A program made the position numbers and the translations under genes. DNA of 64,000 nucleotides, taken from contig CAVPDE010000001.1 in the NCBI GenBank assembly GCA_963702565.1, positions 6,104 through 70,103 on the forward strand. Direction: 5' to 3'. Numbering within the stretch: the stretch's first letter is position 1; each line of letters starts with the position of its first letter. This DNA is from an uncultured delta proteobacterium. Lineage in GTDB: Bacteria; Desulfobacterota; DSM-4660; Desulfatiglandales; HGW-15. The notes under the pieces are model-generated. The model was given only the letters and a program-made list of their open reading frames with translations. It had not been told where the DNA came from and made no database searches. Below, piece after piece: positions 13,510 through 40,396 of the stretch.

Positions 13510-13517
13510 CGCAGTCC

Positions 13518-20530: not shown

Positions 20531-20661
20531 TGCTGCCTCTGGTTCTTATGGGCAAGTCCAATACTGCAACCGAACCGCCGTCCAGCCGTTAGGTTCAACC
20601 AGGGCACTTCTGGGATATCTCCTTCACTCTATATCGAGAACCATACCTGATCAAATGCGGT

Positions 20662-21489
20662 TTACTCACACATCCAAATTTTCCTCCAGACAGCTAAGTG
20701 AATACAACGATGAGCAGGATGTGGACAATCCATCTGTCCCGCCCCCATTTCCGGAGACGGTATCCCCGGTGGATACTCCCCCTCCACGGCCAGCCTATAC
20801 CATTGCAGACCTGCATCCCACACAACCCAGCGTGCAGTTCCGGTGCAAACGCATCCCTGCGCGAATTCATCGTATTTGAAGATCCCTGAATACTGATCAG
20901 GTGGGTCAGCGTTCTCGCAGCCCGCTCCTCCCCCCATACATGAATAGCTCGAACAATTATTATGAAGAGGGTTCCCTCCGTATTCGCATCTGACACCGAC
21001 AAACAGATTATGCCCCCAATATCCGTAAGACTGTACCCTCAAACCTCCCCAACCATGAGTCCCGACGGAATCATCCATCGTGACAACGGCTGAGCCGCAA
21101 GCCGTGCTCCCTGCACATAGCTCGATCTTTTGATAATCTCCGTTCACTATCGCAGTCTGGCTAGGTCCTCCTTGCGTATTGAAATAGAAGCCACTCCCGT
21201 GGGCCGCGACGAGTTGGAGTGTGTAGGTCGGTTTTCCCCAGCCTCCCGAATCGACCCATATCTCTACACACTGACCACGAGATAGCGTGCCTTCCTCTAA
21301 GCTGTCCCAATCCACGCCCATTGTAAGAACGACGGCAGACTTCCAGTTCACAGGGTACGTCAACGCCTGCCCTGAACCCGTAGGCACGACACACATGTTC
21401 TCCTGAGCCCATACCATCGAACTCATGCTCATAAAGAACACCAAGAACAGCCAACAAAAAGCCAGCCTATTCACAGCCCATCTTCTCAT
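20662..21489 (-). CDS. Cys-rich secreted protein, paralogue P3 (unknown family)
   Basis: ATG at 21489 preceded by aaaaaaaagggg. Signal peptide MRRWAVNRLAFCWLFLVFFMSMSSMVWAQENMC. Here it is in frame with the upstream RHS fragment, which gives the 466-aa ORF call 20662..22062. Confidence 0.55.
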   Translation of the reverse strand: MRRWAVNRLAFCWLFLVFFMSMSSMVWAQENMCVVPTGSGQALTYPVNWKSAVVLTMGVDWDSLEEGTLSRGQCVEIWVDSGGWGKPTYTLQLVAAHGSGFYFNTQGGPSQTAIVNGDYQKIELCAGSTACGSAVVTMDDSVGTHGWGGLRVQSYGYWGHNLFVGVRCEYGGNPLHNNCSSYSCMGGGAGCENADPPDQYSGIFKYDEFAQGCVCTGTARWVVWDAGLQWYRLAVEGEYPPGIPSPEMGAGQMDCPHPAHRCIHLAVWRKIWMCE

Positions 21490-22062
21490 GGCATTCCGCC
21501 CCTTTTTTTTCCTGTTCACTCGAAGTGACTCCCAATCTCCGCCCCGCCCAAACGTTATTCCATTCCTGTTTGGCTCATACCCATACGTCTGCTCCCTCGG
21601 CCGCCCTGGATTGGATACGGTCACACAATCACACTCCCCTGCCTGGTTGTTCACCGTACCACCAAACCCGTTGGTCAACCCCTTCGGTCCCCCAAACGGG
21701 TTGTAGGTCAGCCCGCTCACAAGATTGCCAAATCCACTCGCGCTGACCGAAGCGATCTTCCCAAGCTGGCTGTCCCTCGTATTCGTCACCACCCTCCCGC
21801 TCGGGTACGTCACCGAAGCCACTCTCCCTCCCGGTCCATAGGCGGAGGTAACCGCGTAGCTGACGTTGTTGATCGTGCTCGTCTTCTGCACCAGCCTTCC
21901 CCTGGGATCATAGCCGAAGGCGATAGCCCCAGAGGGGTCGGTCATGTCCGTCAGGCGACCCTTTCCATTGGTCCGCAGATCGTAGGTGTAGCCAACATCG
22001 TCAGTCGTCCCCGGATAGTCTGCCAGAGTGACCCTGTTCAGGTTGTCATAAGTGTATTCCAC
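21490..22062 (-). pseudogene. Orphan RHS core fragment (EYTYDNLNRV .. NPGRPREQTYGYEPNRN) plus conserved leader
   Basis: About 90% aa identity to the distal core of the main RHS gene. It lacks an N-terminus and lacks the PxxxxDPxGL core end. Confidence 0.7.
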
Positions 22063-22420
22063 CGCACCCTTGGCACAGAGGCCGTCACAAATGTCTTGAA
22101 CTGGCAGCTATCCAGGTGCCGCCACCGCCGACTCTCCCATCCATGCACGTGCATGCATTGCCCGCACTCCGGGCATGCCCAGACCGCCTCTGCACACGCC
22201 ACTTCGACCTCGATCTCCCCGGCCTCCTTCCTCTTCTTCACCTTCTGCACCGACCACGGCGGCTGAAGCCCCAGGATCTGCTCATAAAGTTTGGTATCGT
22301 TCATGGCCAGAGTCTATCAGGCCCAAGAAGAAATCACACGGAAAAGCCGGAAGGACCTTTCTTATTGACAAGTTCACAAACATACATCCAGGGATGTAGC
22401 TTTGACATAAGTGAAGAGCC
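22063..22420 (-). mobile_element. Truncated ISL3-family insertion sequence (left IR + 5' UTR + first ~80 codons of the transposase)
   Basis: The terminal IR GGCTCTTCACTTATGTCAAAGCTAC reads inward from 22420. ORF 22038..22304 has the ISL3 zinc-finger N-terminus (ILGLQPPWSV..CPECGQ..RRWRHLD..VPRV), then runs out of frame into RHS sequence. Confidence 0.7.
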
Positions 22421-22576
22421 AAATAGCCACTTGTGCCTCGCCAGAGTGCTGATACTCTCATCTATCATGCAATTCTTCCCATGTACGGCTCTTCACAGCT
22501 AACTTGCACATGGCACATCATCCGAGGATGTCAGGACGAGCAACCAAAGTCTGACCAAGTTTGTCATAAAGACACC

Positions 22577-23320
22577 CTACGGCACCGGCACGCATTGCCA
22601 TTCGTACTTAAATACATCGGACGTAGGAACGAAACACCCTGAAGTCGGTATAGTACAACTGAGATCTGAGAAATGAACTGCTGCACATTGCTCAGGAGTT
22701 CCGCATGGGGGATCCGGGGACGCATCCCAATTACCCCCGCCTCCCGGTGACATACACTGCGTCTCAGCCTGAACGCGAAATCTCCAAAATATCGCCCCAT
22801 CATCAACGTCAGAGTAATAGTAATGAGGCCAATTCCCCGGAACATTGCTCGGAGCACAACCTATTTCGTTAACTGCACTGGCTTGCCAGACAAGTTCCCA
22901 TTGACCACCTGCATATCGTATCTTTACTGTATCTGTGGAAAGGCAGGCGTCCGTCACCGTAACTACAGCAAATACATCGTGGTCTTCTCCGCAGGTGCCA
23001 CTAGCTACAGTCAGCACTGTGTAATCCAAGTCCCCGTTCGTCGTCGTCTTGCTCAGGCTGTAACCCGTTCCCTGTACCTGCCAGGTGTATTCGAAAGGAG
23101 AACACCCCCATGCTGCGCGAAGAGAAACCGGCTGTGCGGGGCTGATCTCCTCAGCGCTCGCAATGATCGTCAAGGCAGAGTCCAACTGATTCAACGTCTG
23201 CCCTGAACCCGTAGGCACGATGCACATGTTCTCCTGCGCCCAGGCCCCCGCGCTCGTGCTCATGAACACCAACAGAAACAGCCCACAAAAGGAAAGCCTA
23301 ATCGCCCCTTCTCTTCTCAT
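22577..23320 (-). CDS. Cys-rich secreted protein, paralogue P2 (unknown family)
   Basis: 247-aa ORF with signal peptide MRREGAIRLSFCGLFLLVFMSTSAGAWAQENMCIVPTGSGQ. It has many Cys residues and shares GNW.H.Y and DPPCG.P..CA motifs with P1. Confidence 0.6.
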   Translation of the reverse strand: MRREGAIRLSFCGLFLLVFMSTSAGAWAQENMCIVPTGSGQTLNQLDSALTIIASAEEISPAQPVSLRAAWGCSPFEYTWQVQGTGYSLSKTTTNGDLDYTVLTVASGTCGEDHDVFAVVTVTDACLSTDTVKIRYAGGQWELVWQASAVNEIGCAPSNVPGNWPHYYYSDVDDGAIFWRFRVQAETQCMSPGGGGNWDASPDPPCGTPEQCAAVHFSDLSCTIPTSGCFVPTSDVFKYEWQCVPVP

Positions 23321-23394
23321 GGCATTCCCCCCTTTTCTTCCTGTTCACTCGAAGTGACTCCCTATCTCCGTCCCGCCCAATCGCTATCACGTTC

Positions 23395-23774
23395 CTATTT
23401 GGCTTATACCCATAAGTCCGCTCCCTCGGCTGCCCTGGATTGGATACGGTCACACAATCACACTCGCCAGCCTGGTTGTTCACCGTTCCCCAAACCCATT
23501 CGTCAATCCCTTTGGCCCTCCGAAGGGGGTGTAAGTCACCCCGCTCACGAGATTGCCAAACCCAGTCGCGCTGACCGAAGCGATCTTCCCAAGCTGGCTG
23601 TCCCTCGTGTTGGTCACCACCCTCCCGCTCGGGTAGGTCACCGAAGCCACTCTCCTCCCGGTCCATAGGCGGACGTAACCGGGTAGTTTATGCTGTTAAT
23701 GGTGCTCGCCTTCTGCACCAGCCTTCCCCTCGAATCATACCCAAAGGCGATGATTCCCGATGGATCGTAAACCG
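23395..23774 (-). pseudogene. Orphan RHS core fragment (DPSG .. TYGYKPNRN), frameshifted
   Basis: Homologous to the distal RHS core. It is split between frames (ORF 23298..23666 changes from nonsense to GTVNNQAGECDCVTVSNPGQPRERTYGYKPNRN). Confidence 0.65.
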
Positions 23775-23830
23775 GTAGGTTTTAAGGTTGCTGGTGCGAA
23801 ACCTAAAAACCTTAGAACGTCCCTATTCTC
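23775..23830 (-). repeat. Cassette-boundary hairpin element, copy E3
   Basis: GTAGGTTTTAAGGTTGCTGGTGCGAAACCTAAAAACCTTAGAACGTCCCTATTCTC. Same family as 29009-29073, 32432-32495 and 40322-40396. Confidence 0.85.
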
Positions 23831-23959
23831 CAACAACCGCCTTGTGAGTCTGAGTGGGGAGCTTCAAAGGCTCACAACATTTAGCGGTTCATCACGCTGA
23901 CCATCATACAGAGCTACTGACTTTAGGACACGCTTCATCAAAAGTAGTAAGTCGCCAAT

Positions 23960-24238
23960 CTAATATAGAATCACCAAGATTGTTACGAACCACATAGCGG
24001 GGATACTGATTTTCACAACGATTCCCTTATAAAAGTGAAGCATGATTCCCGTGATGATCACTGAGCACCCAAACGTAAGAACGTTCCCTATTATGAAGGC
24101 AAGATCTCCTCGTGGAGAACCAAGGACCCTCTTGCCCACAAACACAAGGAAGAGCCAGACAGTGAAGAACAACACTACTCTGATTATCCTCCCTGGCTGA
24201 TTTTCCTCACCTGGCAAAACTCTTTGCTTTACTCGCAT
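23960..24238 (-). CDS. Small membrane protein, candidate immunity protein for toxin CT4
   Basis: 92-aa ORF with 3 hydrophobic helices in a visibly AT-richer stretch. Its ATG sits inside the last codons of the upstream ORF (ATGCGAGTAA). Confidence 0.5.
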   Translation of the reverse strand: MRVKQRVLPGEENQPGRIIRVVLFFTVWLFLVFVGKRVLGSPRGDLAFIIGNVLTFGCSVIITGIMLHFYKGIVVKISIPAMWFVTILVILY

Positions 24239-25641
24239 GGATTAGAACTCCATTTTTCCCATACATTTATATTTTCGTCTGGCATCCAAAGGAGATCAAA
24301 AACCTTTGGGGGTGGGTCGAAGTGGTCCTTGTAGTGCAGGAAAATCAGGAAGTCCTCGTTCGGAACACCGGCTTCCGATGGATTTAAGTAATCATAGGCT
24401 AAGATAGCAGCAGGAGTGATGGGGGTGTTCAATCCTTTCTCAATGATCGGGGCAATTACATCTCCCCCTCTAACGTACTTCTTCAGAGTATCTAGAATGG
24501 GGATAATAATTCCCCCCCTTTAACCCGGAAGGGTCCGTCCAATTAGTGGGGTTGTTTTGGACGTAGGCATAGAGATTCAGGCTTTGGGGAGTTACCAAGG
24601 TGTAGTGGTGCAGTGCATCCGCGATTACGAAACGCTGAAGTTCACGTAAACTCGTGAGCGCAGCCGGGGCTTGTACGATTTTGCCGAGTGACGATTGCCT
24701 GCCCATCTGAATCTGCGAAAGGTTAAGAGGATCAGGGGTGATGTACCTCCCAGTCTTTGGATCATAGTAACGGTTGTGGTTGTAGTGGAGGCCGGTCTCC
24801 GTGTCGTAATACTGGCCGGGCAGCCTGATGTTGTTCACCACGCTTGAGCTGGGATGGATATGGGCCTCACCAAATGGCTCATACCAGGCTTCCCAAGCCA
24901 CAGTCCCGTTGCATTCGTGAGGATTTCGGGAGTGCCGAGGCGGTCATTCAGGTAGTGGTAAAGCGCTTGCCACCAGCCACATCCACCATGGCAACACGGA
25001 CTTTGCCCATGTAGAGGTATTCCTTCGTCATGGTGCCGTTGGGCAGGCTCTCGGCAATCAGCTTCCCATCAAGGTCGTAATGGTAAACCGTGGTTACTCC
25101 CACCAGCGACCTTCTTCACCCTCTGTCCTAATCCGTTGTAGGTGTACGTGGCTATTGTGTTTGCTCCCTCCTTCACCTCCTTCAGCTGGTTGTTCTGGTC
25201 GTAAATGAAGGTCAGAGTGCCATCACTCGTGGGATTGCCGTTGGCATCATAGCTGAAGGTTCTCGGGTTTTGTCCCCCGGTGATCTGGTAAAGGCTGTTG
25301 GTTCCTGCATAGTAACGTGTAGTTCTCAACCGACTCCGTTGGTGTTCCTCGTGAGCCTGTTTCCCACATCATCATAGGTGTAGGCGATGGTGCCGTATCT
25401 TCCCGGGCAGAAGTCAAGCCTGTTCAGCTCATCATACCCGAAGGTCTGGTTGTACCAGGGAGTAGTCGTGCCGGTGATGGATGTGAGGTTGCGGTTTGAG
25501 TCATACCCATAGGTCCTCTCCCTCGGTTGTCCCGGATTGGACACGGTCACACAGTCGCACTCCCCCGCCTCGTTGTTCACCGTCCCCCAAACCCATTAGT
25601 CAAACCCTTTGGGCCTCCAAACGGGTTGTAAGTCAGTCCGC
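24229..25641 (-). pseudogene. Frameshifted continuation of the chimeric RHS copy B: distal core, PxxxxDPxGL end and toxin domain CT4
   Basis: ORF pieces 25326..25580, 25069..25329, 24470..24901 and 24229..24432 together reconstruct the RHS core end (GRYITPDP..NNPTNWTDPSGL) and a ~97-aa C-terminal domain if 1-nt indels are corrected. Confidence 0.65.
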
Positions 25642-28600
25642 TTACGAGATTGCCAAATCCGGTCGCGCTGACCGATGAGATCTTCCCGAGCGGCTGTTCC
25701 TCGTGTTCGTCACCACCCTCCCGCTCGGGTACGTCACCGAAGCCACTCTCCCTCCCGGTCCATAGGCGGAGGTAACCGGGTAGCTGATGCTGTTAATGGT
25801 GCTCGTCTTCTGCAACAACCTCCCCCTGGCATCATAGCCGAAGGTAATAGTCCCAGAGGGGTCGGCCATGTCCGTAAGATGACCTTTTCCGTTGGTGCGC
25901 AGATCATAGGTGTAGGCAATGTCATCAGCCGTCCCCGGATAGTCTGCCACAGTGACCCTGTTCAGGTTATCATAGGCGTATTCAACCGTCACAGCCTTGG
26001 CGTCCTTCTTATATCTCAGGTTCCCCGCCTCGTCATATGCATACCTCGTAATCCCCGTATCCGGAGAAGTCGTGGACACCACCCTCCCCAAATCGTCATA
26101 CACGTAGGTCGTGACGTGCGAGTTGGCATCCGTGACACTGGCGAGATTCCCCTGACCGTCATATCCGTATCCCGTTACCAGGTCCCTCAGGCTCGGATCA
26201 TTCACCCATTGCGCCACCTCCTCGATCCTATCCATGAAGTCATACCCGTAGGTCGTCAGATTCCCGTTCGGGTCTTCCATGGAACTCACATTCCCGGCAT
26301 CGTCATACCCGTATTCACGGTATGTGTCATCCGGCTGAATCTCCCGGTACAGCCTCCCAGGATAGCTGGGATGCTCATAACTCCACCGCGTCCTCGATTT
26401 GCGCTCATCACCGCTCGTGTACTTGCCCCTCTCAACCACGTTACCCCGGGGGTAAACTTCATAATCGTGCCTGATGTAGTTCGCCCCTTGATCGAGGATC
26501 TTCCAGAGCCTTGCGTAGTTATCATACTGGAACCCCTGGATTACACCGTCAGGGTCCGTCACCGAAACCAGCAGCCCTCCGACATAGGCAAACTGGGTGG
26601 AGCTGTCCGGATCATCGGCAAAATTCGTGATGGAGGTGATTCTTCCCCGGCCATCATAGGAAAAGCCCTTGGCCTGGCTGTTCACGTCCGTTATCGTCCC
26701 CGGCCTTCCCGCGTTATCGTAAACCGCAAAATAGGTGCTCCCGATATGAGGCTGGGTAACGGATTCCAGGTTGCCCGTGGAGCCGTTGTAGGTGAAGGTC
26801 GTCATATCCCCGCTGCCGGCCCTCGGACCGTCCACGGAGAGAACCTGGCCCTTGGCATTATAGGTGAAGGTCGTCACATATTCATAGGCCTGGGTCGTAT
26901 TGTTGATATCCTTCGTGTGTCCCTGCTCCACGATCCTGGAGAGCAGCAGGGTGGGGCTTTCATTGGCCGTGGCATCATAATCGTTGTCATAGTCCCAGAT
27001 CGTCACCTTGTTCCCGCCGCCAAAAACGCTCGCCTCTGTCCGCGTCAGGGGCACGTTCATGTCCGGATGAAAGGTGTAGTAAATGGTCCGCTGCTCGGGT
27101 GATCCGTAAGCCAAAATGACGGTTCCCGGATTCCCTCTCTCATCGTAATTCTGGTAGCGGTCTATTCTCCCTCCCCCGTATTCCACCTCGGAGAGCCTTC
27201 CCCACTCATCATAAACCCACTCCACGGCATTGCTCTCTGCATAGGGCGCATTGGTGGTCCCCGTCATTGAGCCCAGTCTTTTCAGCCCATCGACGGTCAC
27301 CAGAGCGTAGGTTCGGGTAATGTCATAGACATCCTTCACCTGCACCTGGTTGGGTTGATAAGTGACCAGCTCCACCCCCTTCCCGTCGGGCGATCGGCAG
27401 ACAGTAGCCTGGTCATTCGTGTTGTAGGACCACTCCCGGAGGATATGATTGAGGGAGTCCTTTTTCTGGGTAAGATTGTGAACGTCATTGGCGTCGTTGT
27501 AGACATAAGTGATTCCCGACCCGTCAGCATAGGTCACCGTGGTCAGGTTCTGGTTCCCGTCATAGCCGTATTCCACCCATATCCCGTCATCTACAGCAGC
27601 CGTGACAGGCCCGGTGATGCTTGTCAGCAGCCCGCTGGTGTAATTAAAAGTGAGCACCCGGCCGCTGGCATTGTCGGTCACGGTCTGGAGCCGTCCCTCG
27701 CCGTCATAGGCAAGGGCCAGGGCATTCCCCTTTTCGTCCTCCATCGAACTGAGCCGGCCTGCACTCGTGAATGCGTACCGGCTTCCGTCAAGCCGGTACC
27801 AGGAATACCCTCCTCCCTCGGCCAGGACAAAGCTTCGCTCCCCAAACACTCCTGCATAGTATCCCGTGACCTCTTGAATGAAATACGAGGCTTTGCCGGT
27901 TCCGTCGATGATCTTCAGGAAAGTCCTGCTCCCGAGTTGAGAGGAGGGGTTGAGCGCAGCGCCAAAACTGTGGAACCAGCCATAACCGAGCATCCCGGTC
28001 TGAGTCGCCCGGCTGTTGTAGGCGGCTCTGAAGTTGAAGCTAAGGCTGTTGGGTGAGGGAAAGCTCAGATCTTCCCTGTACTCCAGTGCATTTCCGTTCG
28101 TGATCCTGATGGAGCCTGCCACCAATCCCGCCTCGCCTTGCTGTTCCTCCGGAGCGTAACCCAAGCCCTCGTCCTGGTAGGAATCCGAAGAGGGCGGCAC
28201 TTCGTTTTGGTTGCCAGGGTCTGTGTTGAAGACGTATTCCAGGTAATTTGAAAAGCCGTCACCGTCGTGATCGCCGTTCCTCCCCTGGCTCAGGTCAGGG
28301 AAGTACGCAAGCTCCCACCAGTCAGGAAGCTCGTCACCATCATCATCCCTGCCATAAGGGATGCTCGTTACAGCGACTGTGGCACTATCCGTTGCCGTGC
28401 CCCCTGGGCCGACAGCGGTAATCACATAGGTAGTGGTCACCTCAGGAGTCACCTTGTAGCTCTCAGTGACCCCGTTGGTGTTCCTCGTGACCCTGTTCCC
28501 CACATCGTCATAGGTGTAACCGATGTTTCCGTATCGCCCGCTGGCACTAGTCAACCTGTTCAGTTCGTCATACCCGAAGGTCTGGTTGTACCAGGGGGTA

Positions 28601-28953
28601 GTTGTGCCGGTGATGGAAGTGAGGTTGCGGTTTGCATCATACCCGTAAGTGCGCTCTCTCGGCTGTCCAGGGTTGCACACGGTCACGCAATCACACTCCC
28701 CAGCCTGGTTGTTCACAGTACCTCCGAAGCCATTCGTCAATCCCTTGGGGCCTCCAAACGGGTTGTAGGTCAACCCGCTTACGAGATTGCCGAACCCACT
28801 CGCGCTGACCGAGGCGATCTTCCCAAGCTGGCTGTCCCTCGTATTCGTCACAACCCTCCCGCTGGGATATGTCACCGAAGCCACTCTCCCTCCCGGTCCA
28901 TAGGCGGAGGTAACAGGGTAGCTGATGCTGTTAATGGTGCTCGTCTTCTGCAC
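25642..28953 (-). CDS. RHS/YD-repeat protein, chimeric copy B (orphan core end fused to a duplicate of the main gene from its Ig-like domain onward); no signal peptide
   Basis: 1103-aa ORF. The first ~160 aa are distal-core sequence ending NTNGVTESY, joined to KVTPEVTTTYVITAVGPGG and then many YD repeats nearly identical to 34731-37210. Confidence 0.75.
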   Translation of the reverse strand: MQKTSTINSISYPVTSAYGPGGRVASVTYPSGRVVTNTRDSQLGKIASVSASGFGNLVSGLTYNPFGGPKGLTNGFGGTVNNQAGECDCVTVCNPGQPRERTYGYDANRNLTSITGTTTPWYNQTFGYDELNRLTSASGRYGNIGYTYDDVGNRVTRNTNGVTESYKVTPEVTTTYVITAVGPGGTATDSATVAVTSIPYGRDDDGDELPDWWELAYFPDLSQGRNGDHDGDGFSNYLEYVFNTDPGNQNEVPPSSDSYQDEGLGYAPEEQQGEAGLVAGSIRITNGNALEYREDLSFPSPNSLSFNFRAAYNSRATQTGMLGYGWFHSFGAALNPSSQLGSRTFLKIIDGTGKASYFIQEVTGYYAGVFGERSFVLAEGGGYSWYRLDGSRYAFTSAGRLSSMEDEKGNALALAYDGEGRLQTVTDNASGRVLTFNYTSGLLTSITGPVTAAVDDGIWVEYGYDGNQNLTTVTYADGSGITYVYNDANDVHNLTQKKDSLNHILREWSYNTNDQATVCRSPDGKGVELVTYQPNQVQVKDVYDITRTYALVTVDGLKRLGSMTGTTNAPYAESNAVEWVYDEWGRLSEVEYGGGRIDRYQNYDERGNPGTVILAYGSPEQRTIYYTFHPDMNVPLTRTEASVFGGGNKVTIWDYDNDYDATANESPTLLLSRIVEQGHTKDINNTTQAYEYVTTFTYNAKGQVLSVDGPRAGSGDMTTFTYNGSTGNLESVTQPHIGSTYFAVYDNAGRPGTITDVNSQAKGFSYDGRGRITSITNFADDPDSSTQFAYVGGLLVSVTDPDGVIQGFQYDNYARLWKILDQGANYIRHDYEVYPRGNVVERGKYTSGDERKSRTRWSYEHPSYPGRLYREIQPDDTYREYGYDDAGNVSSMEDPNGNLTTYGYDFMDRIEEVAQWVNDPSLRDLVTGYGYDGQGNLASVTDANSHVTTYVYDDLGRVVSTTSPDTGITRYAYDEAGNLRYKKDAKAVTVEYAYDNLNRVTVADYPGTADDIAYTYDLRTNGKGHLTDMADPSGTITFGYDARGRLLQKTSTINSISYPVTSAYGPGGRVASVTYPSGRVVTNTRNSRSGRSHRSARPDLAIS
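25975..28454 (-). repeat. 2.48-kb near-identical direct repeat, copy 2 (partner 34731-37210, offset 8756 bp)
   Basis: Shadow ORFs 27355..28056, 28065..28262 and 27336..27530 are identical in sequence to 36111..36812, 36821..37018 and 36092..36286. Only a handful of aa substitutions occur across the RHS frame. Confidence 0.9.
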
Positions 28954-29008
28954 CAGCCTCCCCCTCGAATCATACCCAATGGCGATGATTCCCGATGGAT
29001 CGTAAACC

Positions 29009-29073
29009 GGGACGCCAGTAGGTTTTAAGGTTGCTATTGCGAAACCTTAAAACCTTAGGATGTCCCCATTCTC
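29009..29073 (-). repeat. Cassette-boundary hairpin element, copy E2
   Basis: GGGACGCCAGTAGGTTTTAAGGTTGCTATTGCGAAACCTTAAAACCTTAGGATGTCCCCATTCTC. It has a perfect 13-bp stem, 29020-29032 with 29043-29055. Confidence 0.85.
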
Positions 29074-29245
29074 TCTCGTGGCATTTCTAAATGTCAATGG
29101 TCCCTATAATGAAAGTCTTGGGGAACGTTTCAAACTGCGCCGGGCCAAGAGCTTGCTCCCTATCGGAAGGCTGAAGGAGAGGCGCGGGCTGAGAAAAGAG
29201 GGATTTGGTCTCTCGGCGACAATTACTTGAGCCCTAGGGATAGGG

Positions 29246-30019: not shown

Positions 30020-30094
30020 GGCCTTCCCCCCCTTTTCTTCCTGTTGACTCGAAGTGACTTTCGATCTCTGCCCCACTCAATCGCCATCACGTTC

Positions 30095-30418
30095 CTGTTT
30101 GGCTCATGCCCATACGTCCGCTCCCTCGGCTGCCCCGGGTTGGATACGGTCACACAATCACACTCCCCAGCCTGGTTGTTCACCGTTCCCCCGAACCCAT
30201 TCGTCAAACCCTTGGGCCCTCCGAAGGGGTTGTATGTAAGGCCGCTCACGAGATTGCCAAATCCGGTCGCGCTGACCGAAGCAATCTTCCCAAGCTGGCT
30301 GTCCCTCGTATTCGTCACCACCCTCCCGCTGGGATATGTCACCGAAGCCACTCTCCCTCCCGGCCCATAGGCGGAGGTAACCGGGTAGGCTACGCTGCTG
30401 ATGGTGCTAGTCTTCTGC
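30095..30418 (-). pseudogene. Orphan RHS core fragment (QKTSTISS .. TYGHEPNRN), not preceded by the hairpin element
   Basis: ORF 30016..30351 reads MASVTYPSGRVVTNTRDSQLGKIASVSATGFGNLVSGLTYNPFGGPKGL..NPGQPRERTYGHEPNRN, then the conserved leader. Confidence 0.65.
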
Positions 30419-30480
30419 TTAGGCGGACACCGCCCTCAGAAGGGGTAGCTGTCAGACGAAATCTTAGCAACTACAGTTTA

Positions 30481-30762: not shown

Positions 30763-30763
30763 C

Positions 30764-32431: not shown

Positions 32432-32495
32432 GGGCGCCGGTAGGTTTTAAGGTTAATGGTGCGAAACCTAAAAGCCTTAGAACGTCCCCATTCTC
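32432..32495 (-). repeat. Cassette-boundary hairpin element, copy E1
   Basis: GGGCGCCGGTAGGTTTTAAGGTTAATGGTGCGAAACCTAAAAGCCTTAGAACGTCCCCATTCTC. Confidence 0.85.
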
Positions 32496-32553
32496 CTCAC
32501 GCCCGCCTCCTGTGATGGCCGTTCCTTCATCCGCATTCCGTATATCTGAATGA

Positions 32554-32940
32554 CTATTTGCTTTTCTCATAGTAGTAACCTAGGTCAGCATCAATATACA
32601 GCCGAAGGTTCCCTGCGAATGACCTCTTCACTTCCACGACCCAAAAACCAGCTTGCGTGGATCCGTATCCAGGTAACCCAAAAACAAAGCCGTGAAAAGT
32701 GAGCGTGGATCGGCCCTCAGAATATTCAAACTCCCACTTGTTGGCGTTCTTGATCTCTTTACCATCAAACGCCTTGTAATCGTAGGTGTAGGTTCCATCT
32801 GGCTTCAGATCGAGTGAATCAATACCCTTTTGATGGTTTGCCTTGTATTTCCCAAGGACCATCGGCCTTTCAATTGGCTTTTCACACCCGAAACAAATTA
32901 ATAGTAAAGCAAAGAGCATGGCAATTCCGATTCTGTTCAT
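32554..32940 (-). CDS. Lipoprotein, candidate immunity protein for toxin CT1
   Basis: 128-aa ORF with signal/lipobox MLFALLLICFGC in an AT-richer stretch. Its ATG overlaps the toxin stop (ATGA). Confidence 0.55.
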   Translation of the reverse strand: MNRIGIAMLFALLLICFGCEKPIERPMVLGKYKANHQKGIDSLDLKPDGTYTYDYKAFDGKEIKNANKWEFEYSEGRSTLTFHGFVFGLPGYGSTQAGFWVVEVKRSFAGNLRLYIDADLGYYYEKSK

Positions 32941-34736
32941 CGCTTAATGGCCTCCGTCCATGTGTAAGTCTGAGTCATGTTTCCACCAGGGCGAAAGGCT
33001 GAGCGACCCCAAGACGGGCCAATACCATAGAGGAATGAAGTCATGCTGGTTGTATTAGTGATTAAAAAAGCGGATAGAGCTGCCGTCAGGGGTGGGAATG
33101 ACATCAACCCGATAATTGCCAACAAACTGCTCCGTTGGGTCAAACCCTGCTTGCCAAAGCCCTTTGAGTCCAAAACCGGGGCTGTAGTTCAAGAGTGGTT
33201 CCAGATTTGGAGATTGGTCGCAAGGGTCACGTGAACCTAAAATCTTTGCGGCATTTTTGGCATAAAAAGCTTCTCTAGCCTTCTTGACACCGGGTGCGTC
33301 CATGAGGTCAGTTACTTGATTACTACCAGGGCTAAATGTTCGGACATCAGGACCCGTTCCAGTTAACCAAGCCGAGAACATGTTGAGTGACTCTGCCCAA
33401 GTCAACCCTGAAGGGTCTACAAGCCCGATCGGGTTGCCACGAACATAAGGATACAGATTAATCCCTCCGGCTTGCCCAATCGGGTCCGGCGTCAAGTACC
33501 TCCCTGTCTTTGGATCATAGTATCTGTGGTAGTTGTAGTGGAGCCCGGTTCTTGGTCGAAGTACTGTCCCGGCAACCTAATGTTGTTAACCACACTGGAA
33601 CTCGGATGGATGTGGGCTTCGCCGAAAAGGTTCATACCACGCCTCCCAAGCTACAGTCCCACTCGCGTTCGTGAGGATCTCAGGGGTGCCAAGGCGGTCA
33701 TTCAGGTAGTGGTAAAGTGCGTTGCCGCCAGCCACGTCCACCATTGCAACCCGCACTTTCCCCATGTACAGGTATTCCTTCGTCATGGTGCCGGCAGGGA
33801 GGCCCTCCGCAATCAGCTTCCCGTCCAGATCATAATGGTAGATCGTGGTTACTCCGCCTGCAACCTTCTTCACCCTCTGTCCCAAGCCGTTGTAGGTGTA
33901 CGTGGCTATTGTGTTCGCTCCCTGCTTCACTTCCTTCAGCTGGTTTTGCTGATCGTAAATGAAGGTCAGAGTTCCATCACTCGTGGGATTGCCGTTGGCA
34001 TCGTAGCTGAAGGTTCTGGGGTCTTGTCCCCCGGTGATCTGGTAAAGACTGTTGGTTCCCGTGTAGTAACTGTAGCTCTCATTGACTCCGTTGGTGTTCC
34101 TCGTAAGCCTGTTTCCCACATCATCATAGGTGTAGCCGATCGTTCCGTACCTTCCCATTGCAGAAAGTAAGCCTGTTCAGCTCATCATACCCGAAGGTCT
34201 GGTTGTACTGGGAGTAGTCGTCCCGGTGATGGATGTGAGGTTGCGGTTTGAGTCATACCCATAGGTCCTCTCCCTCGGTTGTCCCGGATTGGAAACGGTC
34301 ACACAGTCGCACTCCTCAGCCTGGTTGTTCACCGTCCCTCCAAACCCATTGGTCAAACCCTTTGGGCCGCCAAACGGGTTGTAGGTCAACCCGCTTACGA
34401 GATTGCCAAATCCGGTCGCGCTGACCGATGCGATCTTCCCAAGCTGGCTGTCCCTCGTGTTCGTCACCACCCTCCCGCTCGGGTACGACACCGAAGCCAT
34501 TTCCCTCCCGGTCCATAGGCGGAGGTAACCGGGTAGCTGATGCTGTTAATGGTGCTCGTCTTCTGCAACAACCTCCCCCTGGCATCATAGCCGAAGGCAA
34601 TAGTCCCAGAGGGGTCGGTCATGTCCGTCAGGCGACCCTTTCCATTGGTGCGCAGATCGTAGGTGTAGGCAATGTCATCAGTCTGTCCCCGGGATAGTCT
34701 GCCACAGTGACCCTGTTCAGGTTGTCATAGGCGTAT
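32937..34736 (-). pseudogene. Frameshifted 3' continuation of the main RHS gene: distal core, PxxxxDPxGL end and toxin domain CT1
   Basis: ORF pieces 34177..34500, 33586..34158, 33055..33495 and 32937..33173 follow colinearly on the 1713-aa ORF. The core end is TPDPIGQAGGINLYPYVRGNPIGLVDPSGL. Confidence 0.7.
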
Positions 34737-37210
34737 TCAACCGTCACAGCCTTGGCGTCCTTCTTCATATCTCAGGTTCCCCGCCTCGTCATATGCATAC
34801 CTCGTAATCCCCGTATCCGGAGAAGTCGTGGACACCACCCTCCCCAAATCGTCATACACGTAGGTCGTGACGTGCGAGTTGGCATCCGTGACACTGGCGA
34901 GATTCCCCTGGCCGTCATATCCGTATCCCGTTACCACGTCCCTCAGGCTCGGATCATTCACCCATTGCGCCACCTCCTCGATCCTATCCATGAAGTCATA
35001 CCCGTAGGTCGTCAGATTCCCGTTCGGGTCTTCCATGGAACTCACATTCCCGGCATCGTCATACCCGTATTCACGGTATGTGTCATCCGACTGAATCTCC
35101 CGGTACAGCCTCCCAGGATAGCTGGGATGCTCATAACTCCACCGCGTCCTCGATTTGCGCTCATCACCGCTCGTGTACTTGCCCCTCTCAACCACGTTAC
35201 CCCGGGGGTAAACTTCATAATCGTGCCTGATGTAGTTCGCCCCTCGATCCAGGATCTTCCAGAGCCTAGCGTAGTTATCATACTGGAACCCCTGGATTAC
35301 ACCGTCAGGGTCCGTCACCGAAACCAGCAGCCCTCCGACGTAGGCAAACTGGGTGGAGCTGTCCGGATCATCGGCAAAATTCGTGATGGAGGTGATTCTT
35401 CCCCGGCCATCATAGGAAAAGCCCTTGGCCTGGCTGTTCACGTCCGTTATCGTCCCCGGCCTTCCCGCGTTATCGTAAACCGCAAAATAGGTGCTCCCGA
35501 TATGAGGCTGGGTAACGGATTCCAGGTTGCCCGTGGAGCTGTTGTAGGTGAAGGTCGTCATATCCCCGCTGCCGGCCCTCGGACCGTCCACGGAGAGAAC
35601 CTGGCCCTTGGCATTATAGGTGAAGGTCGTCACATATGCATAGGCCTGGGTCGTATTGTTGATATCCTTCGTGTGTCCCTGCTCCACGATCCTGGAGAGC
35701 AGCAGGGTGGGGCTTTCATTGGCCGTGGCATCATAATCGTCGTCATAGTCCCAGATCGTCACCTTGTTCCCGCCGCCAAGCACGCTCGCCTCTGTCCGCG
35801 TCAGGGGCACGTTCATGTCCGGATGAAAGGTGTAGTAAATGGTCCGCTGCTCGGGTGATCCGTAAGCCAATATCACGGTTCCCGGATTCCCTCTCTCATC
35901 GTAATTCTGGTAGCGGTCTATTCTCCCTCCCCCGTATTCCACCTCGGAGAGCCTTCCCCACTCATCATAAACCCACTCCACGGCATTGCTCTCTGCATAG
36001 GGCGCATTGGTGGTCCCCGTCATTGAGCCCAGTCTTTTCAGCCCATCGACGGTCACCAGAGCGTAGGTTCGGGTAATGTCATAGACATCCTTCACCTGCA
36101 CCTGGTTGGGTTGATAAGTGACCAGCTCCACCCCCTTCCCGTCGGGCGATCGGCAGACAGTAGCCTGGTCATTCGTGTTGTAGGACCACTCCCGGAGGAT
36201 ATGATTGAGGGAGTCCTTTTTCTGGGTAAGATTGTGAACGTCATTGGCGTCGTTGTAGACATAAGTGATTCCCGACCCGTCAGCATAGGTCACCGTGGTC
36301 AGGTTCTGGTTCCCGTCATAGCCGTATTCCACCCATATCCCGTCATCTACAGCAGCCGTGACAGGCCCGGTGATGCTTGTCAGCAGCCCGCTGGTGTAAT
36401 TAAAAGTGAGCACCCGGCCGCTGGCATTGTCGGTCACGGTCTGGAGCCGTCCCTCGCCGTCATAGGCAAGGGCCAGGGCATTCCCCTTTTCGTCCTCCAT
36501 CGAACTGAGCCGGCCTGCACTCGTGAATGCGTACCGGCTTCCGTCAAGCCGGTACCAGGAATACCCTCCTCCCTCGGCCAGGACAAAGCTTCGCTCCCCA
36601 AACACTCCTGCATAGTATCCCGTGACCTCTTGAATGAAATACGAGGCTTTGCCGGTTCCGTCGATGATCTTCAGGAAAGTCCTGCTCCCGAGTTGAGAGG
36701 AGGGGTTGAGCGCAGCGCCAAAACTGTGGAACCAGCCATAACCGAGCATCCCGGTCTGAGTCGCCCGGCTGTTGTAGGCGGCTCTGAAGTTGAAGCTAAG
36801 GCTGTTGGGTGAGGGAAAGCTCAGATCTTCCCTGTACTCCAGTGCATTTCCGTTCGTGATCCTGATGGAGCCTGCCACCAATCCCGCCTCGCCTTGCTGT
36901 TCCTCCGGAGCGTAACCCAAGCCCTCGTCCTGGTAGGAATCCGAAGAGGGCGGCACTTCGTTTTGGTTGCCAGGGTCTGTGTTGAAGACGTATTCCAGGT
37001 AATTTGAAAAGCCGTCACCGTCGTGATCGCCGTTCCTCCCCTGGCTCAGGTCAGGGAAGTACGCAAGCTCCCACCAGTCAGGAAGCTCGTCACCATCATC
37101 ATCCCTGCCATAAGGGATGCTCGTTACAGCGACTGTGGCACTATCCGTTGCCGTGCCCCCTGGGCCGACAGCGGTAATCACATAGGTAGTGGTCACCTCA
37201 GGAGTCACCT
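34731..37210 (-). repeat. 2.48-kb near-identical direct repeat, copy 1 (partner 25975-28454)
   Basis: See the partner entry. The constant 8756-bp offset is verified at several ORF boundaries. Confidence 0.9.
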
Positions 37211-39851
37211 GAAGGGAGCCGCTCGGAGCGACGCTGCCGATCCCGGGTTCGATAGAGCATGACTCGGCATGAGTAGACGTCCACGACAGGTTGGCCGATT
37301 CCCCGGCGTGAATGGTCTGAGGGGTCGCCGTTATGCTGGCCGTTGGCATTGGCGCAGACCCCAGGGAGACGACCAGGTCAACCAGTGAGCCTCCTGCCAC
37401 AGAGGTTCCGGCTGCCGGATTCTGGCTGATCACCAGGCCCTCTGCAACCGTGGCGCTGTATTGATGCGACGTTGTTCCAACAGCGAGTCCTGCCGCGGTG
37501 ATGGTCGCTCCCGCATCCATCTGGGAAAGCCCCACCACATCAGGGACCTGAATCGTTCCCGGGAGAGTCACGATGGTTACAGAATTGACCTGTCCAGCAA
37601 CAATGCCACTCGCACCACTCCAGTACTGACCGCCTTGATAATCAGCCCTGAAGTCGTATGTGCCCCCAGGGAGGGTGAAGAATGCCTTGCCGCTCCCGTT
37701 TGTCGTTCCGGACACTCCCACATACGCACCCGCTGCCGAAAAAACATACACGTTCACTCCGGGCAAAGGAAGTCCTGAGCCGGTGACTGTAACCTCCGCA
37801 TCCCCCATAGGGATGCTGACCGTGGCGTTCTGCCATTGGAACACCTCGGACCAGTAATGCTGGCCCAGGTAATCCGCTCTCACCTTGTAAGCCTGAATGG
37901 GCAGATGGAAGGTGACCTGTCCGTTGCCGTCGGTCAGCTGGGACTGGCCCAGGTAAGCGCCCGATGCCGTGAAGAGGTAAACCGGCACTCCTGCCATGGG
38001 GCTGGATCCCTGGTTCACCCCCTGCACACTGATCACGACGTCCTGGTGGGGGATCGTAAGCGTTCCGGACAAGGACGCTGGAACGGAAAAAATGTCGCTC
38101 CAGAACTGGTATCCGAGATGGTCAGCACGGAATTTATAGCTGCCATTGGAAAGATTGAAAGAGACCCCCCCGGTACTATTGCTGGCGCCGCTCATGCCGA
38201 GATAACTGCCCGCTCCGCTGAATACGTAACAATTCACTCCGCTAATAGGAGCTGCCGGGCCCTTCTGGATGGTCAGGGCGAATGCTCCGCCCCCGGTGGA
38301 TACGGTGACAGGATTTATTTGCCCTGCGATGAGAGACTCCACCCCGCTCCAATACTGGCTGGACTGGTAGTCGGCTCGATACTTGTAGGAGCCTGCGGGG
38401 AGACCGAAAACAACTTTCCCGCTGGAGTCGGTCGAACTGGAGATTCCAAGATAGGCGCCGGCCTCTGAGAACACGTACACATTCACACCGGGCAAAGGGA
38501 GCCCTGAGCTGGTCACCGTCACCTCAGAATCCCCCATCGGGATGGTAACGGTCTTGTCCTGCCACGTGAAGGGTTCTGACCAGAACTGCTGGCCAAGATA
38601 ATCGGCCCGAATCTTGTAAGCGCTCTCAGGGAGGTTGAAGATCACTTCCCCGCTGCTGTTTGTCACGAGGGATTGGCCGAGGTATGAGCCGGAAGCCGTG
38701 AAAAGATAAACACTTAGGCCCTGCATCGGATAGGGGCTTCCCTGGTTCAAGCCATCCACTCTGACCGTCACATCCTGATGCTGTATTGTGAGCGCGCCTG
38801 ACAGGGACGCCGGAACGGAATAGACATCGCTCCAGAACTGGTACCCGAGATAGTCCACCCGGAACTTGTAGGTGCCATTGGATAGATTAACGGAGACCAA
38901 GCCGCCTGAATCGGTCGTTCGGCTGATGCCCAAGTAAGTCCCCGCTTCATTGAACAGATAGCAGTTCACTCCGGCCAGAGGATCTGACGCACCTCTTTGG
39001 ACGGTCAAGCTGAACGATCCGCCTCCGGTCGATATGGCGACGGGGTTGGTTTGACCGCCAACGATAGGCTCCTCGCTGCTCCAGAATTGGCTGGCCTGGT
39101 AGTCGGCCCGGTACTTGTAAGACCCTGCTGGAAGGGTGAAAACCGCCTTGCCGCTGGAGTCAGTAGTACCGTGGACTCCGAGATATGCACCTGCCGGCGA
39201 GAAGACGTACACATTCACACCGGGCAAAGGGAGCCCTGAGCCGGTCACTGTTATCTCCGCATTCCCCATGGAAATAGTGACTGTCTCGTCCTGCCACTGG
39301 AAAACCTCTGACCAGTACTGTCGGCCAAGGTAGTCCACCCGTGCTTTGTAAGATTTCTCGGGAAGGTTGAAGACCGCCTCTCCGTTGCTATCAGTTACCC
39401 GGGATTGCCCCATGTAAGACCCCGAGCCCGTGAAGAGATAAACTTTCAACCCTTGCATCGGGTACGGGGTTCCCTGGTTCAAGCCCTCCACCCCAATCAC
39501 TACCTCCTCATGGGGGATCGTCAGAACGCCGGACACGGAAGTGGGAACCGAATAGATCTGGCTCCAGAACTGGTACCCGAGATAGTCTATGCGGAATTTG
39601 TAAGAGCCGTCGGCAAGATCGAACGTCACATCCCCACTGCTGTTGGTGGCTCCCGCTTTGCCCAGATAGCTGCCCCCTCCGCTGAATACATAACAGTTCA
39701 CCCCGACCAGCGGCTCCGTCTCGCTCTTATTCACTGTCAGGGTGAACGGAGTGCCAGGGTCGCCGTAGACAGGCAGAGCGCTGAGGTTCACAAAACAAAA
39801 CAGGGCCAGAAGGCAGAAGAGATTCCTAGTCGAGGTTGTCTTTGGGGCCAT
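34737..39851 (-). CDS. Main RHS/YD-repeat polymorphic toxin: Sec signal, nine beta-sandwich repeats (3x3), PASTA, Ig-like, Ca-binding D-rich linker, RHS core (open part up to the first frameshift)
   Basis: The ATG at 39851 follows GGGAGGAGG. Signal peptide MAPKTTSTRNLFCLLALFCFVNLSALPVYG. Repeats are of the type GVNCYVFSG.GSYLG..SSG.V.F.L..GSYKFR.DYLGYQFWS. PASTA is VPDVVGLSQMDAGATITAAGLAVG..GLVISQNPAAGTSV, and many YD repeats follow. Confidence 0.85.
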   Translation of the reverse strand: MAPKTTSTRNLFCLLALFCFVNLSALPVYGDPGTPFTLTVNKSETEPLVGVNCYVFSGGGSYLGKAGATNSSGDVTFDLADGSYKFRIDYLGYQFWSQIYSVPTSVSGVLTIPHEEVVIGVEGLNQGTPYPMQGLKVYLFTGSGSYMGQSRVTDSNGEAVFNLPEKSYKARVDYLGRQYWSEVFQWQDETVTISMGNAEITVTGSGLPLPGVNVYVFSPAGAYLGVHGTTDSSGKAVFTLPAGSYKYRADYQASQFWSSEEPIVGGQTNPVAISTGGGSFSLTVQRGASDPLAGVNCYLFNEAGTYLGISRTTDSGGLVSVNLSNGTYKFRVDYLGYQFWSDVYSVPASLSGALTIQHQDVTVRVDGLNQGSPYPMQGLSVYLFTASGSYLGQSLVTNSSGEVIFNLPESAYKIRADYLGQQFWSEPFTWQDKTVTIPMGDSEVTVTSSGLPLPGVNVYVFSEAGAYLGISSSTDSSGKVVFGLPAGSYKYRADYQSSQYWSGVESLIAGQINPVTVSTGGGAFALTIQKGPAAPISGVNCYVFSGAGSYLGMSGASNSTGGVSFNLSNGSYKFRADHLGYQFWSDIFSVPASLSGTLTIPHQDVVISVQGVNQGSSPMAGVPVYLFTASGAYLGQSQLTDGNGQVTFHLPIQAYKVRADYLGQHYWSEVFQWQNATVSIPMGDAEVTVTGSGLPLPGVNVYVFSAAGAYVGVSGTTNGSGKAFFTLPGGTYDFRADYQGGQYWSGASGIVAGQVNSVTIVTLPGTIQVPDVVGLSQMDAGATITAAGLAVGTTSHQYSATVAEGLVISQNPAAGTSVAGGSLVDLVVSLGSAPMPTASITATPQTIHAGESANLSWTSTHAESCSIEPGIGSVAPSGSLQVTPEVTTTYVITAVGPGGTATDSATVAVTSIPYGRDDDGDELPDWWELAYFPDLSQGRNGDHDGDGFSNYLEYVFNTDPGNQNEVPPSSDSYQDEGLGYAPEEQQGEAGLVAGSIRITNGNALEYREDLSFPSPNSLSFNFRAAYNSRATQTGMLGYGWFHSFGAALNPSSQLGSRTFLKIIDGTGKASYFIQEVTGYYAGVFGERSFVLAEGGGYSWYRLDGSRYAFTSAGRLSSMEDEKGNALALAYDGEGRLQTVTDNASGRVLTFNYTSGLLTSITGPVTAAVDDGIWVEYGYDGNQNLTTVTYADGSGITYVYNDANDVHNLTQKKDSLNHILREWSYNTNDQATVCRSPDGKGVELVTYQPNQVQVKDVYDITRTYALVTVDGLKRLGSMTGTTNAPYAESNAVEWVYDEWGRLSEVEYGGGRIDRYQNYDERGNPGTVILAYGSPEQRTIYYTFHPDMNVPLTRTEASVLGGGNKVTIWDYDDDYDATANESPTLLLSRIVEQGHTKDINNTTQAYAYVTTFTYNAKGQVLSVDGPRAGSGDMTTFTYNSSTGNLESVTQPHIGSTYFAVYDNAGRPGTITDVNSQAKGFSYDGRGRITSITNFADDPDSSTQFAYVGGLLVSVTDPDGVIQGFQYDNYARLWKILDRGANYIRHDYEVYPRGNVVERGKYTSGDERKSRTRWSYEHPSYPGRLYREIQSDDTYREYGYDDAGNVSSMEDPNGNLTTYGYDFMDRIEEVAQWVNDPSLRDVVTGYGYDGQGNLASVTDANSHVTTYVYDDLGRVVSTTSPDTGITRYAYDEAGNLRYEEGRQGCDG

Positions 39852-40321
39852 CTTTTCCTCCTCCCAATATGTGGTCAATGAGCCCAGTTTCTTCTTCTGT
39901 TATTTCAACCGCGTCTGAGAAAACCTGCTTAAGTCTTAATCCGATGGAGCCAGTTAGGGTTACTGTTGGCAATCTGGAATTTGACTTCTTGCTGGGACTG
40001 GAACTGAAAGCAAGGGATGAAGAAACACTTCTCGCATTTCTGTACGCAATTGCGGTGCCAGAACTTGGTCTTCCGGAGAGTAATTTCTCTTAGGAAACGT
40101 AGCTAAACGAGAACACGGCCCTATGTATTCACTGCCTCGCCTTCCACAGCAAGGTGAGCCGGCATTTTGCGGAGCTCTTGCTCCGAGGGATTGCACAATT
40201 CCTTGTGCTGCACTGCACAGAAAAGAGTGCAGAGGGAACGCAGAAGTCGGCTTCAAGGGTTTGTACTTACGGCTACTCCGTCTTCATTTCCGACAGATGA
40301 TCCTTCCACGTATGATAAACT

Positions 40322-40396
40322 GGGACGCTGTTAGGTTTTAAGGTTGCTAGCGATCGTCTCTTGGAAACCTAAAAACTATAGGATGTCCCCATTCTC
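40322..40396 (-). repeat. Hairpin element, copy E0 (enlarged loop), ~470 bp upstream of the main RHS start
   Basis: GGGACGCTGTTAGGTTTTAAGGTTGCTAGCGATCGTCTCTTGGAAACCTAAAAACTATAGGATGTCCCCATTCTC. Confidence 0.8.

Follow-up and report, generated by a model that had tools for sequence, protein, structure and literature searches.

The interval 20,662-40,396 of the DNA analysed here, a stretch of 64,000 nt from an uncultured delta proteobacterium (assembly GCA_963702565.1, contig CAVPDE010000001.1; hereafter the window), is a genuine chromosomal rhs (YD-repeat) polymorphic-toxin island, whose host is probably related to the Desulfobacteraceae. It is located on the minus strand, which carries dense open reading frames (ORFs) and repeats over this length. 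The minus-strand order begins with a short palindromic element (E0) and a leader of ~465 nt, followed by the main rhs gene with its candidate C-terminal toxin domain (CT) CT1, the candidate immunity gene I1, element E1, the core of orphan module O1 with CT2, and I2. The second half comprises core stump F1, gene P1, E2, a second rhs copy (copy B) with CT4, I4, E3, stump F2, P2, a remnant of an ISL3 insertion sequence (IS), stump F3 and P3 (Table 1).

A first-pass annotation, made from the sequence alone, had described this region as an rhs polymorphic-toxin locus with a chain of six orphan modules. Pfam and NCBIfam matches to Rhs domains bore out the locus, and all of the elements it listed were found at or near the places it gave for them. 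The chain of six, however, turned out to be five rhs-derived modules plus an IS remnant downstream of the main gene. Only two of these, O1 (CT2/I2) and copy B (CT4/I4), are orphan tip/immunity cassettes of the classical type.

Domain structure of the main Rhs protein

From its N-terminus the main Rhs protein is composed of a Sec-type signal peptide, which the first-pass annotation had correctly recognised, CarboxypepD_reg/prealbumin-like repeats, PASTA, a Ca-binding-like DDDGD motif, a DUF6531 plug, a YD shell and a core that extends to DPSGL. Pfam matches within window ORF 39878-34737 (1,713 aa) were obtained for RHS_repeat (8.7e-44), DUF6531 (1.3e-09), RHS, five CarboxypepD_reg stretches and PASTA. 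The arrangement of a plug before a YD/RHS-repeat shell was also found in copy B (DUF6531 7.9e-10, RHS_repeat 4.2e-61), and a TEN_YD-shell was recorded for the genes of a second assembly of the locus (L001, see below). A core that ends in PxxxxDPxGL and is followed by a variable CT is indicated by NCBIfam TIGR03696 (Rhs_assc_core, 1e-11 to 1e-13), whose match ends at DPSGL or DPLGL right before CT1, CT2 and CT4.

An NHL propeller gave no match in the main protein at E ≤ 0.01 (Pfam), and cell-wall or S-layer anchor domains are not present in it. PAAR, VgrG, Hcp, Tc and two-partner secretion (TPS) domains were found neither in the main protein nor in the scanned window ORFs of at least 150 aa, in agreement with the first-pass annotation, which had seen no PAAR, VgrG, Hcp, TcA/TcB or two-partner secretion gene. 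With no PAAR in the main protein and no domains of a type VI secretion system (T6SS) in the same set of ORFs, the protein does not classify as a T6SS effector.

The N-terminal stalk of the main gene (37669-39705) is built of ~730-bp internal DNA repeats (CarboxypepD_reg units), which are ~73% identical. A second rhs locus was found on ENA ERZ25039459 contig_73734 (L007; ~75-78% identical at the nucleotide level), with an HNH protein, orphan tips and a P-family gene. The N-terminus of its full-length Rhs protein consists only of a signal peptide and ~80 aa, without the CarboxypepD_reg stalk.

Frameshifts and comparison with a second assembly

As assembled in the window, the ORF of the main gene ends at 34737, and four ORF pieces in other frames continue it. 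The breaks are due to nine window-specific indels of 1-2 bp (34766, 34691-90, 34502, 34213, 34166, 33628, 33551, 33069), which are absent from a second assembly and from two Logan contigs. Copy B and O1 are likewise split into several ORFs. A second assembly, ENA contig_70210 (ERZ25039459, 19,900 bp; labels L001, L005 and L021), was reached via the exact P1 protein. It is colinear with window positions 37206-20452 over 16.7 kb with 98.85% identity. Window and L001 differ by 33 indel events, and at each of them the ORF is broken in just one of the two assemblies: L001 reads open from the main distal core into CT1 and from copy B into CT4, and is itself broken at sites where the window is intact. 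Splicing window 39851-34767 to its continuation in L001 resulted in one ORF of 2,303 aa without an internal stop. The earlier description of a main RHS gene from 39851 to CT1 thus applies to the hybrid sequence but not to the window as assembled. A window/L001 hybrid of copy B reads without a stop over 1,605 codons.

Two Logan contigs from run ERR11561443 (L006 and L022) were 100% identical to L001. Compared to the window they showed 3 indels and 0 mismatches over CT1-I1-E1, and 1 indel and 5 mismatches over CT4-I4-E3. Since each differing indel is missing from the other assembly, the Logan contigs match the intact version and the hybrids are open, we infer that most frameshifts of the window are assembly (polishing) errors confined to repeated DNA. 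According to this, frameshifted rhs 'pseudogenes' in long-read metagenome-assembled genomes (MAGs) can be polishing artefacts limited to repeats. In O1, two frameshifts in homopolymer runs are common to both assemblies.

Toxin tips and candidate immunity genes

Each tip is directly followed by a small gene. I1 and CT1 overlap by 4 bp, I4 and CT4 by 10 nt, and I2 starts 2 nt past the CT2 stop. The GC content of I1, I2 and I4 is 0.444, 0.436 and 0.444, respectively, compared to 0.45-0.50 for the CTs and 0.55-0.58 for the core, which confirms that the candidate immunity genes are AT-richer than the core, as the first reading of the sequence had suggested.

About 20 homologues of CT1 and 12 of CT2 were found. 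A DPxGL-like Rhs-core motif precedes the domain in all of them that retain upstream sequence (directly, and degenerate in some, for CT1), and both CT1/I1 and CT2 are found again behind DPxGL in other metagenomes. A 128-aa I1 homologue (84% or 26% identical) comes directly after a CT1 homologue in L018 and L019/L020, with the 4-bp overlap kept and the G-C of the lipobox invariant. Because pairs with the same overlap recur in unrelated contigs, the assignment of CT1/I1 as a putative toxin/immunity pair is supported, and this conserved neighbourhood is the best evidence for it. On L019 (GCA_037025605.1, contig JBAIHC010003536.1) the CT1/I1-like pair is located among Imm27, Ntox28 with a HEAT-repeat ORF, MazE/PIN and HicA genes, and this region looks like a mixed orphan toxin/immunity island.

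Searches of CT1, CT2, CT4, I1, I2 and I4 against Pfam, NCBIfam, PADLOC and PDB sequences gave no match; the profile searches that the first-pass annotation had proposed for the three tips thus matched no Pfam or NCBIfam toxin domain. The locus yields three unannotated candidate toxin-domain families, each with a candidate immunity partner. An AlphaFold2 model of CT1 reached a pLDDT of 78.5. Foldseek returned for it one match, 9jdi_A (C-terminal domain of a Bacteroides T6SS effector; E 0.029, TM 0.41), which is too weak to use. Since I1 is a predicted lipoprotein, the site of action of CT1 is probably periplasmic, and by the same reasoning from the membrane proteins I2 and I4, CT2 and CT4 probably act on the membrane.

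In copy B an insertion of ~45 aa (24735-24535; L001 ~12470-12680) splits the core end between 'TPDP' and 'LNLYAYVQNNPTNWTDPSGL', just ahead of CT4. CT2 and CT4 both end in NPCE before the stop codon (30764-30780, 24229-24245), many CT2 homologues end in PC[EHP], and P proteins (see below) in W-x-C-[EQP]. This C-terminal Cys ending could be a shared motif or a coincidence.

Table 1 Features of the rhs island, in minus-strand order (window coordinates)
Feature	Position	Strand	Description
E0	40316..40396	-	imperfect palindrome; 38 nt past the stop of the cNMP/FHA gene, ~465 nt before the main rhs ATG
Main rhs gene	32937..39851	-	hybrid ORF of 2,303 aa (Pfam, NCBIfam)
CT1	32937..33402	-	candidate toxin domain after DPSGL, ~154 aa, no Pfam/NCBIfam family
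I1	32554..32940	-	128-aa predicted lipoprotein with G-C lipobox; candidate immunity
E1	32425..32495	-	fused at GTTTA/ to core at the 'DPSG' position
Orphan O1	30764..32424	-	distal core 32424-31211 and CT2 31210-30764
CT2	30764..31210	-	Gly-rich tip of O1
I2	30481..30762	-	small membrane protein with two transmembrane segments and CxxC...CxxC zinc ribbon; candidate CT2 immunity
F1/P1 unit	29246..30418	-	core stump 30418-~30098, P leader of ~80 nt, P1 gene
E2	29003..29073	-	sole copy whose hairpin is clearly stable, z = -4.2
Copy B	24229..29002	-	core stump 29002-28455 fused to main-gene copy, ends in CT4; no signal peptide
CT4	24229..24520	-	tip of copy B
I4	23960..24238	-	92-aa polytopic membrane protein; candidate CT4 immunity
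E3	23768..23830	-	8-nt deletion relative to E1/E2
F2/P2 unit	22577..23767	-	core stump 23767-~23398, P leader, P2 gene
Truncated ISL3 transposase	22038..22304	-	Zn_ribbon_ISL3 1.7e-12, N-terminal part only
F3/P3 unit	20662..22074	-	core stump 22074-~21569, P leader, P3 gene

Modules downstream of the main gene

O1 and copy B each combine a core lacking the N-terminus with DPxGL, a distinct CT and an immunity gene, as expected for displaced C-terminal modules. F1, F2 and F3 do not: they stop mid-core at YGYxPN, where they adjoin the leader of an independent gene. The view that the orphans are displaced tips kept as a recombination reservoir fits O1 and copy B but not the P units, and a six-fold chain overstates it.

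The chimeric nature of copy B, proposed in the first-pass annotation, was confirmed. At 28455/28454 a core stump is fused in frame to a copy of the main gene from 37210 on, and ORF 28953-25642 represents a second Rhs shell (Pfam). By self-BLAST, 28454-24743 is 96.2% identical to 37210-33496 of the main gene, with zero mismatches in the first ~1.3 kb and a divergence that grows toward the 3' end. Copy B retains nearly the whole shell, which contradicts the statement that each orphan retains only the distal core.

The distal core (~330-550 bp) is present in seven copies with 74-89% mutual identity. The junction between E and core, GTTTA/CGATCCATCGGG at the 'DPSG' position, falls on the identical nucleotide in O1, the head of copy B and F2, and the junction between core and P leader after YGYxPN does so in F1, F2 and F3. 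Because each of the two junctions recurs three times at the same nucleotide, we infer that the array was for the most part extended by reusing or duplicating a small set of modules and not by six separate displacements. The truncated ISL3 gene, also predicted earlier, runs into core stump F3 at about 22075, after 80 codons. A complete ISL3 element would combine the N-terminal Zn ribbon with a DDE transposase domain and terminal inverted repeats; this one is a remnant, as only the Zn ribbon is left and the ORF passes into the rhs core.

The P genes

P1, P2 and P3 start at their own ATG (30019, 23320 and 21489; genes 30019-29246, 23320-22577 and 21489-20662). Each is preceded by its own leader and a Shine-Dalgarno-like purine run and encodes a signal peptide (...AWA/QENMC), an Ig-like domain and a Cys-rich tail. 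The first-pass annotation had described orphan fragments with Cys-rich P1 and P2 and one fused to P3. The genes are separate from Rhs, and the continuous F3-P3 ORF arises merely from a missing intervening stop codon.

A word-indexed search with P returned three close relatives, while an exhaustive profile search returned 309 cluster representatives (85 at E ≤ 1e-10), mostly of 230-280 aa, with a conserved N-terminal domain and a hypervariable Cys-rich tail with the ending given above. None of the 309 representatives has a Pfam model for the P domain, PADLOC and Pfam searches gave no match, and P was not found in phage records and IMG/VR. AlphaFold predicted the N-terminal domain (residues ~55-165) as a confident beta-sandwich (pLDDT >90) and the tail poorly; Foldseek with the domain of P1 retrieved generic Ig-like or macroglobulin folds only. 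P represents a large unannotated family of secreted Ig-like/Cys-rich proteins repeatedly found inside rhs arrays.

The identity between P units drops abruptly, from ~87% to undetectable, 130-220 nt into the ORF, which leaves room for allele exchange via the conserved 5' part. The core/P junction is kept at about 90% nucleotide identity in JGI contigs L002 (F3/P3) and L008 (F2/P2), and a fourth P gene is located inside the second rhs locus L007. In contrast, contig CAZOLJ010000133.1 of a MAG ('uncultured Desulfobacteraceae bacterium') carries the same leader and a P gene without rhs core, after a Y1 transposase; its homology to the window starts at, or a few bases from, the core/P junction. In L009 a P gene adjoins a homologue of the window's own flank gene.

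As each P gene comes with a leader and a signal peptide of its own, and this combination of leader and gene is also found without rhs, P1-P3 are autonomous genes for predicted secreted proteins and not Rhs C-termini. The core/P junction goes back to one ancestral event that was later triplicated, most simply via unequal recombination between core repeats. The P genes may be passengers captured between these repeats. One P-family gene precedes a lambda GpA-type terminase ATPase (L003, 1229-1930) and one lies beside an IS200-like Y1 transposase (L011, 2-1039), which hints that the family is mobile independently of rhs.

The E element

E is an imperfect palindrome of 63-81 nt, present in four copies and nowhere else in the window. 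A 15-nt E query gave 5 matches versus 0.07 expected from shuffles: four are the right arms of E0-E3, and the fifth, on the opposite strand, is the left arm of E2. At its left end (GAGAATGGGGAC), E adjoins four unrelated sequences. E may act as a short right-hand homology arm or as a hot spot of recombination or breakage, to judge from its sharp borders. All four copies are palindromes, but only E2 folds more stably than shuffles (E0, which the first-pass annotation had called a hairpin, has z = +0.75). Together with the lack of a T-tract after E, this led us to discard a structured RNA or terminator.

When JGI metagenome contigs were scanned for the exact pattern, six matches were returned, none of them window-like, so that a widespread repetitive extragenic palindrome or miniature inverted-repeat transposable element was discarded as well. 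E is not present in the second rhs locus L007. Promoter-like matches were as frequent as in shuffles, and terminator-like ones fell below expectation. The best regional sigma-70-like match, TTGACA-18-GAGAAT (10/12 positions; 29097-29068, minus strand), lies just upstream of E2/copy B; the match total is at chance level.

A nearly closed contig

The path of contig_70210 runs from 37206 to 20452, jumps to 40355 in the hairpin loop of E0 and stops at 37208, where a single nucleotide is missing for closure. The join (L001 16740-16770; end of L021) connects 20452, within an AMIN-domain ORF, to 40355, with GATC at both partners. Flanking direct repeats or att-like sites were rejected, since a local alignment of the island ends did not score above shuffles and junction microhomology is at GATC level only. 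A plasmid or phage nature of the island was rejected, as megablast gave no match in PLSDB and P none in phage records or IMG/VR.

Flanking genes and recombination functions

The flanks are of housekeeping type (GlnD paralogues, AmtB, GDH, the Mla system, cNMP-binding proteins), and their single-copy genes are long unbroken ORFs. The scanned window proteins contain no recombinase domains, and an Rfam scan (gathering threshold) and a tRNA scan of the window gave no matches. With no recombinase domain found and E occurring in this locus only, the island does not classify as an integron-like array, which has an integrase and attC-type sites bounding its cassettes. A search for the cNMP/FHA flank gene, made to locate the chromosomal junction in other assemblies, returned nothing. 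The gene amtB is located between two paralogues of GlnD-like uridylyltransferase (8418-16121); further to the right, a 699-aa ORF without Pfam match comes after a caspase-like Peptidase_C14 gene (52076-55066).

Proposed function and alternative explanations

In characterised Rhs proteins the shell encloses the CT, and an aspartyl autoprotease at DPxGL releases it, as established by structural work. By analogy with such proteins (PMC3150448), the shell would encapsulate the CT here, autoproteolysis at DPxGL would free it, and the immunity proteins would shield sibling or kin cells. Judging from its Sec signal and Ig-like stalk, the main Rhs may be a weapon that is displayed on the cell surface and acts on contact, comparable to WapA or bacterial teneurin-like proteins. 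O1 and copy B would be silent alternative tips downstream of the main gene. Homologous recombination of the main gene with copy B (3.7 kb, 96-100% identical) or with O1 would swap the expressed tip; as copy B has no signal peptide, its delivery would need recombination with the main gene, an event that their near-identity over 3.7 kb would make easy. Recombination with copy B would delete 8.8 kb (CT1-I1, O1, P1).

Several points weigh against this interpretation. No T6SS or TPS genes that could account for outer-membrane crossing are located nearby, toxicity and immunity of the CT/I pairs are predictions, and CT1, CT2 and CT4 match no known toxin family. The frameshifts of O1, being present in both assemblies, may be real. 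L001 and the Logan contigs may share reads and are then not fully independent of each other, and the window could stem from a genuinely decayed strain. The proposed roles of E rest on sharp borders in just four copies, one of them stably folded.

It is very improbable that the array was created in assembly, through the expansion or collapse of rhs repeats. The locus is rich in repeats, many indels of the window are confined to the repeated cores, and the self-closing ENA contig indicates a tangled assembly graph at this site. Nevertheless, two assemblies are colinear over 16.7 kb, the core copies differ by 11-26% and each has unique cargo, so that they cannot derive from duplicated reads, and separate short contigs confirm I1-E1-O1 (L006), CT4-I4-E3 (L022), F3/P3 (L002) and F2/P2 (L008). 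A decaying pseudogene array with real frameshifts, in which no functional Rhs is made, could be argued from the split of the main gene, copy B and O1 in the window, from about half of the indels, which are not beside homopolymers, and from O1, which is frameshifted in both assemblies. We regard it as quite unlikely, since the intact version at each of the 33 differing indels restores full-length ORFs and agrees with the Logan contigs, and since the indels cluster in repeats while single-copy flanking genes are intact. For the nearly closed contig, a tandem duplication or an excised circle of the 19.9-kb interval 40355..20452 in part of the population would explain the 20452-to-40355 jump that leaves it one nucleotide short of closure. 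This is a tentative explanation that we do not favour: microhomology at the junction is limited to GATC and no repeat between the ends exceeds shuffle level, the island contains no integrase, replication or mobilisation gene and has no plasmid or phage similarity, and the cycle was seen in one contig of one assembly, where chimeric reads or a graph artefact are possible.

The P genes might also be functional rhs partners instead of passengers, either as orphan periplasmic immunity proteins or decoys or as a second polymorphic family in which stump, leader and signal form a 5' homology arm. Three P genes in this island, one in the L007 rhs locus and the core/P junction in two more contigs would fit such a role, as would the conserved N-terminal domain with its hypervariable Cys-rich tail, the identity drop, which resembles a recombination breakpoint, and the Sec signal, which puts P proteins in the periplasm or outside the cell. 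No CT precedes and no immunity-like ORF follows any P gene, however, homologues without rhs have a Y1 transposase, a GpA terminase or ordinary flank genes as neighbours, PADLOC and Pfam offer no match, and passive duplication between core repeats accounts for the triplication. We therefore consider a partnership unlikely and retain the passenger reading. A broader scheme, for which we see little chance, would make core stumps and E a general scaffold that shuffles both Rhs tips and P as a second, hitherto undescribed polymorphic family of Sec-exported Ig-like/Cys-rich proteins, with the whole 19.9-kb island amplifying or excising via breakage of the E0 hairpin.

Comparison with known systems

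Orphan rhs-CT/rhsI modules are known from the enterobacterial rhs loci of E. coli, Salmonella and Dickeya (Poole et al. 2011, PMC3150448; PMC7043789). As in these, core fragments with different CTs and small cognate immunity genes lie downstream of a full-length rhs gene, tips and immunity genes are of lower GC content, and core homology would permit tip switching. The present locus differs by a Sec signal and a long Ig-like stalk in place of a PAAR/VgrG-linked N-terminus, by an 'orphan' (copy B) that retains almost the whole shell, by modules that begin with the recurrent 63-81 nt E element, and by three units with a non-rhs secreted-protein gene in place of a CT. In bee-gut symbionts, T6SS Rhs toxins form long orphan arrays (Steele et al. 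2017, PMC5727410). Both there and here, displaced Rhs tips and their immunity genes make up arrays of several modules that are interpreted as recombination reservoirs. The bee-gut arrays are T6SS-linked and consist of CT/immunity modules, whereas no T6SS genes are found in the 64 kb here and only two of the five modules are of the CT/immunity type.

Sec-dependent YD/Rhs toxins of the cell surface comprise WapA of Firmicutes and bacterial teneurin-like proteins (PMC13018210; Zhang et al. 2012, PMC3482391). The main Rhs shares with them the signal peptide, adhesion-type N-terminal domains, a YD shell around a polymorphic CT of small size, and an immunity gene next to it. Unlike these proteins it has no cell-wall or S-layer anchor, and its host is probably diderm. 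Teneurin-like proteins are defined by FN-plug, NHL propeller and YD shell (PMC13018210); as no NHL was detected, the main Rhs is not teneurin-like in this sense.

The locus belongs to a known kind of Rhs system, and none of its oddities is established as new biology. Rhs tips of the Tse5/RhsP1 type are pore-forming, contain a glycine zipper and are countered by membrane immunity proteins. CT2 resembles them in being Gly-rich and having a small membrane partner, a likeness that is compositional only, with no similar PDB chain sequence. The island offers a well-resolved, T6SS-independent Rhs array with a Sec signal from a lineage of sulfate reducers for which such systems have hardly been studied. 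Its cyclic contig, the P family associated with rhs and the toxin families without annotation are worth following up.

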